A stretch of DNA of 4,247 nucleotides, taken from IMG/VR virus record IMGVR_UViG_2778261674_000006; one strand, 5' to 3'. The notes beneath the pieces were generated by a model that was not told the origin of the DNA, ran no database searches, and saw only the letters and a list, made by a program, of their open reading frames with translations. Shown piece by piece: positions 2,035-4,247 of the stretch (positions are counted from its first letter, which is position 1; every line of letters begins with the position of its first letter). The translations under genes were made by a program, and so were the position numbers. The DNA is from a virus. Its lineage: Duplodnaviria > Heunggongvirae > Uroviricota > Caudoviricetes.

Positions 2035-2059
2035 ATAAAAAACCCAGCCGAAGCTGGGT
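2035..2059 (-). terminator. Intrinsic terminator downstream of the antirepressor gene and immediately upstream of the K ribosome-binding site
   Basis: Minus-strand reading: ACCCAGC-ttcg-GCTGGGT (2059..2042) followed by TTTTTTAT (2041..2034), then AGGAG and the ATG of K. This is a classic GC stem plus U-tract. Confidence 0.6.
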
Positions 2060-2077
2060 CATTTCGTTGGCAATCTG

Positions 2078-2998
2078 TTAGTAGTGATGCAGTGAAGGAG
2101 GTAATTCTTTGTTCTTAAGTCTTAGCCATGCAGAAAGATTCGTTGGTCCGTCTGGCTCATTAATATCAATATCTCGCGTGTGATTGATTAAAACGTCTCT
2201 CGCCATTCCAATAACATACGAGAACTCATGACCGTAGTCGTAGCATCTGCAGGAATAGTTCGATTGAATTTGCTTTAGCGCCGGATACAGTTCGCGGAAT
2301 AATGCCTGTGAGCGGTTGGCATAATCCCATAACCATACAAGGCTGTTTGCTTCTTTTGCAGAAAGCTCGTTGGTTTTCTTCTCTTGTTTTCCGATGAATT
2401 CGCCTTCAAGTGGAATACGAGCAGCAAGTGACAGTGCTTCGGTAAACTGCTCCTCACTGATTTCTTTGTACGAACATCCAAAATGGGATTTCAGTGACGA
2501 CCACATGGTGATCATCGCCTTCGCCTGTTTTTCTTTTGGCAGAGACTGACCGCGACTCATGACGAGTTGTTTAATAGCTTCCTGCTGTTCAGTGGTGATT
2601 TTCCCCAGCAATGCCTTTTTAGCTTTGCGCGGGTTAATCACATGGCCTTTAGTCCAGTACTCGTAGAGCACATCGTCACACTCTTCCTGATACTGGATTA
2701 CCTTCTCGCGGATTTCAGGGCGGACTTTGTTAGGACTGATGGTTTGGAGCCAACCATTCAGTTTACGCAAAGCAAGGCAAATCATGGTCTGCATACCGCC
2801 AACTGAAGGTATTGCGATTTCCACAATACCTTTAGCAAATCTTTGTTTTAACTTTGTAAACTGTGAAGCCCAATCCATACCCATTCCCTCAACGATAGGT
2901 TTCATTGGGGTGTACGGTTCGCCGTTGTGATTGACGACATAAAGCTCTGCGCCGTGGAATGGCACGTTGATAGTAGATACCGCTGTTGCTATACTCAT
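2078..2998 (-). CDS. ant: Phage antirepressor (Ant-like; the N-terminal region resembles the P22 antirepressor N-terminal domain family), 306 aa from the ATG at 2998
   Basis: ORF-track frame 2078..3052. I chose the start at 2998 (MSIATAVSTINVPFHGAELYVVNHNGEPYTPMKPIVEGMGMDWASQFTKL...) because AAGGAA (3012..3007) lies 8 nt upstream; the 3052 start adds 18 residues that overlap a terminator hairpin. The protein resembles antirepressors from enterobacterial prophages, and the gene sits directly downstream of an Arc-like gene as in P22 immI. Confidence 0.75.
   Translation of the reverse strand: MSIATAVSTINVPFHGAELYVVNHNGEPYTPMKPIVEGMGMDWASQFTKLKQRFAKGIVEIAIPSVGGMQTMICLALRKLNGWLQTISPNKVRPEIREKVIQYQEECDDVLYEYWTKGHVINPRKAKKALLGKITTEQQEAIKQLVMSRGQSLPKEKQAKAMITMWSSLKSHFGCSYKEISEEQFTEALSLAARIPLEGEFIGKQEKKTNELSAKEANSLVWLWDYANRSQALFRELYPALKQIQSNYSCRCYDYGHEFSYVIGMARDVLINHTRDIDINEPDGPTNLSAWLRLKNKELPPSLHHY
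2967..2995 (+). promoter_or_regulatory. Candidate sigma70 promoter for an antisense (sar-like) RNA: TTGATA -17 bp- TATACT
   Basis: -35 TTGATA at 2967..2972, a 17-bp spacer, and -10 TATACT at 2990..2995 on the plus strand, inside the 5' end of ant and pointing away from it. The predicted transcription start is near 3002. Confidence 0.4.
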
Positions 2999-3001
2999 TT
3001 C

Positions 3002-3071
3002 GTTAGTTCCTTGGAAGTTACTGACATAGAAGCCCGATTTGTGTTCGCGCACTGTCGGGCTTCGCTATTTT
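3002..3071 (+). ncRNA. sar: Candidate sar-like cis-antisense small RNA (~70 nt) complementary to the ant ribosome-binding site and the arc-ant spacer
   Basis: It is bounded upstream by the promoter above and downstream by a plus-strand intrinsic terminator: stem GAAGCCCGA (3029..3037) / TCGGGCTTC (3055..3063), a 17-nt loop, then GCTATTTTTAT (T-tract 3066..3071). The transcript would be antisense to the ant Shine-Dalgarno at 3007..3012. As I recall, P22 has a ~70-nt sar RNA in the same position. Confidence 0.35.
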
Positions 3072-3238
3072 TATGTCCTAGCATTCTTCTCTCCAATCAG
3101 TCCGTACACTTTTCTCAATTGATAAATAAGTTCCGTGTTGAACTGTCGACACTCTTTTTCTCCATTTCTTTCAATCGCCTTCCTTACATCCTCTGGGAAA
3201 CGAACCTTGCGTTGATACATGTCTTTTGCTTTTTCCAT
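3071..3238 (-). CDS. arc: Arc-like ribbon-helix-helix transcriptional repressor, 55 aa (not in the supplied ORF track)
   Basis: Manual translation of the minus strand from the ATG at 3238..3236 gives MEKAKDMYQRKVRFPEDVRKAIERNGEKECRQFNTELIYQLRKVYGLIGEKNART, ending at TAA 3073..3071. A strong ribosome-binding site AAGGAG (3249..3244) lies 5 nt upstream. The pattern (basic beta-strand RKVRFPEDV, then N-[ST]-E-[IL]-x-Y-Q) resembles P22 Arc (...FNLRWPREVLDLVRKVAEENGRSVNSEIYQRV...) as I recall it. Confidence 0.65.
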   Translation of the reverse strand: MEKAKDMYQRKVRFPEDVRKAIERNGEKECRQFNTELIYQLRKVYGLIGEKNART

Positions 3239-3255
3239 CTCCACTCCTTAAATAG

Positions 3256-3318
3256 CCTCACTGTGGGGCAATCAAAATTGTCACACCGTGCGTCATTGAA
3301 GTCAACCCCACCGTGGGG
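3256..3318. promoter_or_regulatory. Three candidate operator sites with a CACNGTG core, centred at 3262, 3287 and 3312 (exactly 25 bp apart)
   Basis: Site 1, 3256..3268: CCTCAC-t-GTGGGG (one mismatch). Site 2, 3281..3293: tcaCAC-c-GTGcgt (core only). Site 3, 3306..3318: CCCCAC-c-GTGGGG (perfect 6+1+6 palindrome). Sites 1 and 3 also share the direct repeat CACYGTGGGGCA. Sites 2 and 3 fall in the spacers of the two divergent promoters; site 1 lies between the predicted ant-operon start and its ribosome-binding site. Confidence 0.55.
3277..3305 (-). promoter_or_regulatory. Candidate promoter for the arc-ant operon: TTGACT -17 bp- (TGt)GACAAT, minus strand
   Basis: Minus-strand reading: -35 TTGACT (3305..3300), a 17-bp spacer, and -10 GACAAT (3282..3277) preceded by a TGn extended -10 motif. 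Site 2 lies in the spacer. Confidence 0.4.
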
Positions 3319-3324
3319 CATAAT
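3296..3324 (+). promoter_or_regulatory. Candidate promoter for the mnt-like gene: TTGAAG -17 bp- CATAAT, plus strand
   Basis: -35 TTGAAG (3296..3301), a 17-bp spacer containing the perfect palindrome (site 3), and -10 CATAAT (3319..3324). Its -35 overlaps the -35 of the divergent arc-ant promoter (3300..3305). Confidence 0.45.
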
Positions 3325-3361
3325 TTACTTATTGTGAATTTTTCCTGTTTGGACTAATGGT

Positions 3362-3736
3362 ATGAGTAGAGAAGACCCTCAACTTCGGATTAGGCTTCCT
3401 GTTGAATTAAAAAAAATAATTGAAGCGTCATCAAAACAAAATAATCGTTCTATGAATGCTGAGATTGTCACTCTGCTTGAGTTGGCGATTCGTGTTTGTC
3501 GTGATTTTGGGCCGGAGGATGGTCCTATCGTTCAGCAGTTTAAAGAACAACTAGATGCGATAAACAGAAAATATGATAAAAGCGAGCATGAAAAACTTAT
3601 ACCTCAACTTTTAGAAATCATAGAAAAACAGAAAAAACAAGTAGATAAACTTATTAGCATGGTTGAAAGATCAATTCCTCTTTCAGAGGAATATAAGCAG
3701 AAATATCTTGGTGATGACAACAAAAAACCCACCTGA
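3362..3736 (+). CDS. mnt: Mnt-like ribbon-helix-helix repressor with an extended C-terminal, probably coiled-coil, region; 124 aa
   Basis: ORF-track protein MSREDPQLRIRLPVELKKIIEASSKQNNRSMNAEIVTLLELAI... aligns by eye with P22 Mnt (MARDDPHFNFRMPMEVREKLKFRAEANGRSMNSELLQIVQDAL, from memory): M-x-R-[DE]-DP, R-[ML]-P-x-E-[VL], N-RSMN-[SA]-E-[LI]. The C-terminal ~70 residues are rich in K/E/Q/L with a heptad-like pattern. The gene is divergent from arc-ant. Confidence 0.78.
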   Translation: MSREDPQLRIRLPVELKKIIEASSKQNNRSMNAEIVTLLELAIRVCRDFGPEDGPIVQQFKEQLDAINRKYDKSEHEKLIPQLLEIIEKQKKQVDKLISMVERSIPLSEEYKQKYLGDDNKKPT

Positions 3737-3743
3737 TGGTGGG
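3722..3743 (-). terminator. Hairpin plus T-tract at the convergent L / mnt-like junction; terminator-like only for the minus (L) strand
   Basis: Minus-strand reading: CCCACC-atca-GGTGGG (3743..3728) followed by TTTTTTG (3727..3721), beginning 10 nt after the L stop codon. On the plus strand the hairpin is preceded, not followed, by the A/T run, so it is a poor terminator for the mnt-like transcript. The hairpin overlaps the last mnt-like codons and its stop (3734..3736). Confidence 0.45.
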
Positions 3744-3752
3744 CATAATCCA

Positions 3753-4247
3753 TTACTGCGAAAGCTTGTTAATGGAAAGGAAGCCGCCAAAGTTGCCGAC
3801 GTTATTGCGAAACTTACAGCCACTCAGGCATTTGCTGCATTTATCCTTCGTGATATCGGACGTTGGCTGGTCATATTCATCCGCGACTGCCGGACCGTTA
3901 TAACCGCACTCATCACCGCGATAGGTCCAGGTGCAGGTGTTGGCCAGCATGATACGTCCCGGAAAAACAGCGCCATCTGTTTCCGTCGGCGTGGACAGTA
4001 CAAAAGAGGCACTGACCGCGCTCAGTTCGCTGCACTGCTCGATGCGCCAGCGGCTGATCACCTCCTGCTCCGGATCGGCGTCGCTGTTTCCGTTGACGAA
4101 GTTCACCGCATCCAGAAAACGGGCATAAACCTTACGCCTGACCACCGTTCCGCCGACCAGACTCTGCAGGTCTTCCGCCATCCCGGTGACCATACCGTAC
4201 AGGTTAGAAACCGTCAGCGTGGGGCGCGTACTGGTGCCTTTGCCATT
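3753..4247 (-). CDS. L: Tail tip protein L, C-terminal ~164 aa; the 5' end lies beyond the window end
   Basis: ORF-track protein (from an internal Met) MVTGMAEDLQSLVGGTVVRRKVYARFLDAVNFVNGNSDADPEQEVISRWRIEQCSELS...CSKCLSGCKFRNNVGNFGGFLSINKLSQ matches lambda gpL as I recall it, including the Cys-rich C-terminus. The frame 3753..4193 is given in the track and appears to stay open up to 4247. Confidence 0.85.
   Translation of the reverse strand, partial: NGKGTSTRPTLTVSNLYGMVTGMAEDLQSLVGGTVVRRKVYARFLDAVNFVNGNSDADPEQEVISRWRIEQCSELSAVSASFVLSTPTETDGAVFPGRIMLANTCTWTYRGDECGYNGPAVADEYDQPTSDITKDKCSKCLSGCKFRNNVGNFGGFLSINKLSQ

Follow-up and report, generated by a model that had tools for sequence, protein, structure and literature searches.

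A conserved gene for a probable Arc-family repressor in a probable P22 immI-type module within the tail-gene cluster of a lambda-like Escherichia coli prophage

The window analysed here is a 4,247-nucleotide (nt) stretch of a tailed bacteriophage genome (Caudoviricetes; IMG/VR record IMGVR_UViG_2778261674_000006), numbered along one strand from 5' to 3'. On its minus strand, at positions 3071..3238, lies a 168-nt open reading frame (ORF) with a product of 55 amino acids (aa). We found that this ORF codes for protein and is subject to strong purifying selection, and that its product, judged from family-level profiles, is a ribbon-helix-helix (RHH) protein of the Arc family, detectably homologous to Arc and Mnt of phage P22. 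Taken with its surroundings, the ORF very probably encodes a dimeric Arc-family repressor and forms the first gene of an arc-ant operon, within a complete P22 immI-type 'ant moron' inserted in the tail cluster of a lambda-like E. coli prophage, with gene L on one side and gene K on the other. Direct support was obtained for the gene and the selection acting on it, for Arc/Mnt homology and a predicted RHH fold, for synteny, for a near-invariant operator core and for a hairpin on the antisense strand.

Coding status of the 55-codon frame

Read from the letters of the minus strand, the Shine-Dalgarno sequence AAGGAG (3249..3244) is followed by a TGGAG spacer, the start codon ATG (3238..3236) and, at the end of 55 sense codons, the stop codon TAA (3073..3071). 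The ribosome-binding site 5 nt upstream of the start, the start at 3238, the stop at 3071 and the 55-aa product proposed in the first-pass annotation all agreed with direct reading and translation. A program-made ORF list opened the frame two codons earlier, at GTG 3244, for a product of 57 aa, but this GTG falls within the Shine-Dalgarno sequence. Working independently, the NCBI Prokaryotic Genome Annotation Pipeline (PGAP) had placed the start at ATG 3238 in two E. coli chromosomes with 98-99% identity to the region. The gene had been described as unannotated, which was true of the ORF track then in use but not of public records: PGAP lists a coding sequence here (RefSeq WP_001579610.1, 'hypothetical protein'), and homologues are named as Arc family proteins or Arc-like repressors. 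The default 60-aa cutoff for listing ORFs exceeds the length of the frame and plausibly accounts for its absence from that track.

As many as 41 mechanically called ORFs of at least 30 aa occur in the window, and the length of this one is therefore by itself within chance. The status of the ORF as a gene was decided instead by comparative data, namely the open frame, the substitution rates and the pattern across codon positions. A protein search recovered 129 homologues of the 55-aa protein at 68% identity or more across Enterobacterales. Fourteen genomic loci (from Rouxiella, Raoultella, Pluralibacter, Citrobacter, Kluyvera, Proteus, Dryocola, Pantoea, Mixta, Xenorhabdus and Yersinia) were compared together with Escherichia phage TL-2011b, giving 15 related loci and, with the window, 16. 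The arc-like frame was intact (55-58 aa) in 16/16 loci from at least 11 enterobacterial genera, and each carried a GGAG-type Shine-Dalgarno sequence at the same place upstream. Relative to the window copy, the proportion of synonymous differences (pS) was saturated at 0.66-0.95 and that of nonsynonymous differences (pN) was 0.04-0.19, with means of 0.84 versus 0.16. Third codon positions were variable in 49 of 52 alignment columns, compared to 17 of 52 for second positions. The first-pass annotation had claimed a real small gene and had pointed to conservation of the reading frame in related loci as a means of checking it; with the frame open throughout and pN far below pS, that claim is well founded.

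A 136-aa ORF on the plus strand (2927-3337) overlaps the gene and, along with the abundance of short ORFs in the window, might suggest that the 55-codon frame is open by chance, the region being a non-coding leader or the longer ORF encoding the true product. We consider this extremely improbable. Both the codon-position pattern and the pN/pS values suit the minus-strand frame, PGAP annotates the minus-strand coding sequence, and, although the arc-like frame is open in all 16 loci, the fully antisense frame is interrupted by a stop in 10 of them. The 136-aa ORF, moreover, crosses the intergenic promoters and takes in the beginning of ant. It lies antisense to arc and continues over the arc-ant spacer and the promoters; with its frame broken in most related loci, it was rejected as an artefact of the gene on the opposite strand.

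Relationship to the Arc family

Direct evidence from the single sequence for membership of the Arc family was marginal, and evidence at the level of the family was clear. Several results weigh against the assignment. The 55-aa protein matched Pfam Arc (PF03869) with 19.2 bits (E = 1.1e-3), short of the gathering cutoff of 20.4, and an NCBIfam search with it returned nothing significant. In searches of the PDB with the single sequence and with a first profile, designed proteins and a primase outranked Arc (Arc E 0.06-0.16), and hhalign against P22 Arc alone gave a probability of 48%. Foldseek with the first structure model of the protein returned no match, and DSSP assigned no strand in the single-chain model, a monomer only, in which the beta-ribbon is not visible. 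With the single sequence, phmmer found only de novo designed ferredoxin-like proteins and a primase in the PDB; these hits were judged to be spurious low-complexity helix matches.

The wider family gave a more consistent picture. PHROG 228, 'Arc-like repressor', matched the 55-aa protein at E = 1.3e-5. Among 23 close homologues, 14 matched Pfam Arc (E <=0.01; best 8.8e-6), and several database homologues carry a precomputed PF03869 match. The family as a whole thus straddles the Pfam cutoff and the window sequence is a near miss. The profile built from close homologues ranked the primase and designed proteins above Arc, and a more diverse alignment was therefore needed. Searched against 1.84 billion (1.84e9) representative proteins, that profile recruited 40 sequences at E <=1e-3, which bear the canonical R-x-P...N-x-R-S-x-N-x-E-I signature. 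The query was aligned with 35 of the recruited sequences, and 28 of these 36 matched Pfam Arc, the best at 1.3e-37. A profile from the wider alignment then reached pArc (8.7e-13), AmrZ (7e-11), P22 Arc (3.6e-9) and P22 Mnt (8.8e-8) in the PDB, a homology that is transitive, the second profile being dominated by canonical Arc-like members. The first-pass annotation had recognised an Arc-type RHH product and had expected a Pfam or HHpred search to find that superfamily. Family-level profiles, PHROG and the predicted fold support the first point; on the second, profile searches do reach Arc, Mnt and AmrZ, but the Pfam match itself falls below cutoff.

The AlphaFold2 model computed from the wider alignment (predicted local distance difference test score 86.6) has an extended segment at residues 7-15 and helices at 16-28 and 33-44, a predicted strand - helix A - helix B topology. 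Helices of Arc lie at about 16-29 and 32-45 in the published structure, a pattern that the model matches. By hhalign, residues 4-42 aligned without gaps on residues 4-42 of Arc, with R13 and P15 in register. P22 Arc (PDB 1ARR/1PAR) is also of similar size, 53 aa compared with 55 aa here. Identity between the two, however, is only about 23%; the loop reads E-[CS]-R-Q-F-N-T-E here and N-G-R-S-V-N-S-E in Arc, and strand position 11 is K here and N in Arc. By homology with P22, the 55-aa protein probably dimerises. Pseudomonas AmrZ (PDB 3QOQ), another RHH protein of the Arc superfamily, is a chromosomal regulator of virulence and alginate that differs in having an extended N-terminus, a C-terminal oligomerisation domain and no antirepressor context.

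RHH proteins also serve as type II antitoxins, as ParG/omega-like partition or copy-control proteins and as relaxosome accessory factors, and in any such role the proximity of ant would be incidental. This is very unlikely for the 55-aa protein. No toxin, ParA or relaxase gene adjoins it, and its partners in every related locus examined were a Mnt-like RHH gene, transcribed divergently, and an antirepressor-type gene downstream. Its top family-level matches are Arc, AmrZ and Mnt, and the arc-ant spacer is homologous to the sar region of P22.

Many homologues are already named 'Arc family DNA-binding protein' by NCBI. What is mildly new is that the window protein belongs to a divergent sub-family, with some 23% identity to Arc and a Pfam score short of the cutoff, and for this reason the E. 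coli copies have been left by PGAP as hypothetical proteins. WP_001579610.1 and its E. coli relatives could now be renamed as Arc-family repressors.

Proposed regulation of the arc-ant region

Downstream of arc on the same strand lies ant (2078..2998, minus), which encodes an antirepressor with P22_AR_N and P22_AR_C domains that is 56% identical to P22 Ant; its PGAP start, ATG 2998, is 72 nt from the arc stop at 3071. The product of a divergent mnt-like gene (3362..3736, plus; 124 aa) begins with an RHH domain, which scores 30.6 bits with Pfam Arc and shares 33% identity with the N-terminus of P22 Mnt, and has a helical C-terminal domain. Both neighbours recur. A divergent gene with a Mnt-like RHH N-terminus (58-80% identical) faced the arc homologue in 14/14 genome loci, and an antirepressor-type gene lay downstream on the same strand in all 15 related loci, as the next gene in nearly all; in L005 the distance was about 0.7 kb, and in L006 the gene was seen by tblastn only. 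The N-terminal domain of the antirepressor varied among loci between P22_AR_N, Bro-N with or without P22_AR_C, and KilA-N. A comparison with small ORFs upstream of ant homologues, suggested in the first-pass annotation, thus found the same arrangement in all 15 related loci, and the arc-ant operon proposed there was borne out. Its description as a full arc-ant operon was too narrow, since a divergent Mnt-like repressor and a predicted sar-like RNA accompany it, probably making up a whole P22 immI-type region.

The mnt-like gene showed a conserved and a variable part. Its RHH N-terminus (MSREDPQLRIRLP...NNRSMNAEIV) was nearly invariant in the window and the 14 genome loci (L005-L018). The C-terminal domain was swapped: the window protein has a unique helical tail of about 80 aa, most other genera have a conserved domain of about 100 aa, and one locus (L007) encodes a short 87-aa version. 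No Pfam family matched the C-terminal tail of the window protein (residues ~45-124). In TL-2011b (L019, NC_019445, ~3448-3880, minus) a 1-nt insertion after codon 9 (MSREDPQLR) splits the frame of the mnt-like gene, and only the downstream part is annotated in the record, as a hypothetical protein; the split reflects either a true loss of intact mnt or an error in sequencing.

The spacer between arc and mnt is about 125 bp long, and its core was near-invariant across genera despite saturated synonymous sites in the adjoining arc. A promoter scan located a Pant-like promoter, TTGACT-17 nt-GACAAT with a TG extension (3277..3305, minus), whose predicted start is near 3270; both of its hexamers fall within the core that is near-invariant in the 15 loci. 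A Pmnt-like promoter, TTGAAG-17 nt-CATAAT, was found in the same way at 3296..3324 (plus), and its -10 element was kept as CATAAT or CATACT in all loci. Three palindromes with a common CAC-N-GTG core, spaced 25 bp from centre to centre, are candidate operators. O-right, CCTCAC-T-GTGGGG (3256..3268), covers the predicted Pant start. O-mid, an imperfect palindrome TGTCACAC-C-GTGCGTCA (3279..3295), lies inside the Pant spacer and was near-invariant in 15 loci. O-left, the perfect palindrome CCCCAC-C-GTGGGG (3306..3318), lies inside the spacer of the Pmnt-like promoter and abuts the Pant -35 element. The window contains two GTGGGG palindromes, both in the arc/mnt spacer, compared with 0.14 expected by chance. 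In the Mixta (L016) and Xenorhabdus (L017) loci, O-right is of the O-mid type (CACACCGTGTGAC and CGCACGGTGTGAC, respectively) rather than GTGGGG.

Positions of these sites were similar to those in P22. The centre of O-right is 15 nt past the Pant -10 element, exactly the distance seen in P22 (X01916) for the mnt operator, AGGTCCAC-G-GTGGACCT, and O-right contains GTGG, the first four bases of the Mnt half-site GTGGACC (PMC2726951). O-mid occupies the place in the Pant spacer held in P22 by the arc operator, suggesting it as the most likely site for the Arc-like protein. Two features argue against a simple P22 scheme. The promoters of the window overlap through their -35 elements, those of P22 through the -10 element of each and the -35 element of the other, and the three candidate operators are related, unlike the two unrelated arc and mnt operators of P22 (the arc operator being ATGATAGAAGCACTCTACTAT, different from a site with a CAC-N-GTG core). 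Assignment of operators to proteins is uncertain because all three candidate sites share this core. We looked for covariation between strand residues and operator bases across the loci and found no signal, the strands of both proteins being invariant.

The 72-nt spacer between arc and ant was recognisably homologous to that of P22, with GAAGCCC...GGGCTTC, GTCAGTAA, the ribosome-binding site and then ATGA-AGTATAGCAA. Within the first ant codons the promoter scan found a TG-extended Psar-like promoter on the opposite strand, TTGATA-17 nt-TATACT (2967..2995, plus; 10/12 matches), whose -10 hexamer is identical to the one that sits in the first ant codons of P22. A transcript from about G3002 would be a sar-like antisense RNA of ~69 nt (3002..3070, plus) with two hairpins: a 5' stem-loop carrying the complement of the ant ribosome-binding site, and, at 3029-3063, a terminator hairpin with a T-run after it (3066-3070). 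Its predicted fold has an energy of -28.1 kcal/mol and a z-score of -4.8. A scan of the whole window with Rfam gave no sar match. When the region was searched alone (111 nt), the sar model (RF00262) matched 3002-3066 (+) over its full length and on the correct strand with 15.6 bits (E 0.62), a score below the gathering cutoff of 43; P22 sar, the positive control, scored 97.8 bits.

Comparative data pointed to selection on this RNA. Across 15 sequences, pairing in the terminator hairpin was kept in 145/150 cells on the antisense strand versus 119/150 on the sense strand. There were 26 G.U pairs on the antisense strand, each of which would be an A.C mismatch on the mRNA strand. Double changes were seen in 13 cells, and the observed covariation score was reached in 0/500 shuffles. 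A -10-like hexamer, often TG-extended, was kept on the antisense strand in the first ant codons of 15/16 loci, the exception being the Xenorhabdus locus, whatever the domain family of the Ant N-terminus. Because of the strand-specific pairing and G.U pairs, the covariation and the conserved -10 element, the hairpin is concluded to be under selection as an RNA element of the antisense strand, like that of P22 sar. In two Proteus loci (L010 and L012) the arc-ant spacer is shortened and the large sar-type hairpin is absent.

The following circuit takes dimerisation, the operator choice of each protein, repression and the target of Ant from homology with P22. Following infection, Pant (3305-3277, minus) would transcribe arc and then ant. 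As Arc-like dimers accumulate they would bind the promoter region, with O-mid as the likeliest site, and turn off both Pant and the overlapping Pmnt; Ant would thus be limited to a short burst after infection. The Mnt-like RHH protein, encoded divergently, would keep Pant off in the lysogen through the GTGGGG palindromes, O-right at the transcription start and O-left. The ~69-nt sar-like RNA, transcribed from the promoter in the first ant codons, would pair with the ant ribosome-binding site and block it; the antisense mechanism of P22 sar is summarised in PMC2629481. Ant, when produced, would inactivate a CI/C2-type prophage repressor.

The roles of the two RHH repressors may instead be swapped or shared, with the Arc-like protein on the GTGGGG palindromes and the Mnt-like protein on O-mid, or with both proteins on all three CAC-N-GTG sites. 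The logic of the circuit would then be unlike that of P22, for example with Arc as the main blocker at the transcription start. The shared core and regular 25-bp spacing would suit such an arrangement, as would the similar base-contacting strand residues predicted for the two proteins (Q-x-K-x-R in the Arc-like versus Q-x-R-x-R in the Mnt-like protein), the O-mid-type sequence that replaces O-right in the Mixta and Xenorhabdus loci, and a promoter geometry unlike that of P22. However, O-right stands exactly where the P22 mnt operator does and has GTGG in common with the Mnt half-site, and O-mid takes the place of the P22 arc operator; the strand residues, being invariant in both families, do not allow covariation to choose between the assignments. 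We regard swapped or shared roles as unlikely and favour the P22-like assignment of O-mid to the Arc-like protein and of the GTGGGG palindromes to the Mnt-like protein.

Tentatively, and with more doubt than confidence, the module may be viewed as a distinct portable variant of immI rather than a plain P22 copy. Taken jointly, this proposal would have both RHH repressors reading one shared CAC-N-GTG code at three sites 25 bp apart; the C-terminal domains of the Mnt-like protein (124 aa in the protein here, ~145 aa elsewhere, 87 aa in L007) being interchangeable and possibly acting as sensors; an arc/operator/sar cassette having recombined onto antirepressors with P22_AR_N, Bro-N or KilA-N domains; and the junction being fixed by the antisense promoter within the first codons. 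If so, the sar promoter would be a 'joint' of recombination and constraint for the shuffling of antirepressors across phage morphotypes.

Genomic setting and known relatives

The module (~2040-3750) is a moron of low GC content that separates tail gene L from tail gene K and has terminator-like hairpins on both sides. The fraction of guanine plus cytosine (GC) was 0.37-0.47 in the insert versus 0.54-0.64 in the flanking tail genes, all three of which are lambda-like and on the minus strand: L (3753-4193), K (1286-2023) and I (747-1388). One hairpin with a T-run (3727..3744, minus) lies just after gene L, at the 3' end of the mnt-like gene and the upstream edge of the low-GC insert. The other (2041..2060, minus) follows ant and precedes gene K.

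The P22 immI region (annotated in X01916) and the 'ant moron' of P22-like phages, comprising mnt, arc, sar and ant (PMC2629481), are textbook material, and the finding in this window is correct but ordinary. Likenesses extend to gene order and orientation, to predicted divergent overlapping promoters with Pant laid out as in the annotated P22 arc-ant promoter, to Ant and the RHH N-terminus of Mnt, to the position and GTGG half-site start of O-right, to the antisense TATACT in the first ant codons with its predicted two-hairpin RNA, and to the insertion of a module with its own predicted promoters and terminators in a late operon. Differences, beyond those of promoter overlap and operator relatedness given above, are the host cluster (a lambda-like siphovirus tail cluster here, the podovirus region before the tailspike gene in P22), the unrelated C-terminal domain of the 124-aa Mnt-like protein and the low Rfam sar score.

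Phage TL-2011b (NC_019445) is a close parallel. Its gp41, 'Arc-like repressor', is 79% identical to the window protein and adjoins gp42, 'anti-repressor Ant', and the operator core and arc-ant arrangement are the same. It differs in its phage backbone and in the split mnt-like gene. The gp41 annotation is by similarity only, and no experimental study of it was found. Gifsy antirepressors were considered as a further parallel among tail genes and rejected; they adjoin dinI near replication genes and are under LexA control (PMC3121763).

The window ant is about 94% identical to ant of P22-like E. coli prophages, which points to mosaic exchange. Among 5426 complete E. coli genomes, the arc/mnt type of the window was present in 38, just 2 of which covered the whole segment. 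Other E. coli prophages keep ant in the same L-K slot with other regulators: one (L003, 3066-4359) has a 46-aa protein of the YlcI/YnfO family, two Arc-family genes and a ClpP-like protease, and another (L004, 3081-4164) has a 57-aa hypothetical protein and a LexA-family protein.

No description of an ant/arc module lying between genes L and K of the lambda tail cluster came up in literature searches. This location is mildly new, as is the reach of sar-like RNAs well beyond the Rfam model. The comparative data extend the antisense RNA family of P22 sar, and the 'ant moron' is seen to occur in lambda-like tail clusters too. With these features named, the prophage can be recognised as bearing what is probably a complete antirepressor switch, made up of the mnt-like and arc-like genes, the predicted sar-like RNA and ant. 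Whether a prophage, or a heteroimmune one resident with it, can be induced in the absence of repressor cleavage depends on switches of this kind, and the current view of their mechanism is unchanged by these findings.

At the downstream edge of the module, the mechanical ORF for tail gene K (1286-2062, minus) opens at ATG 2062 for a product of 258 aa, and the extension includes the post-ant hairpin (2060-2041). The PGAP start at ATG 2023 (245 aa) is plausibly to be preferred.

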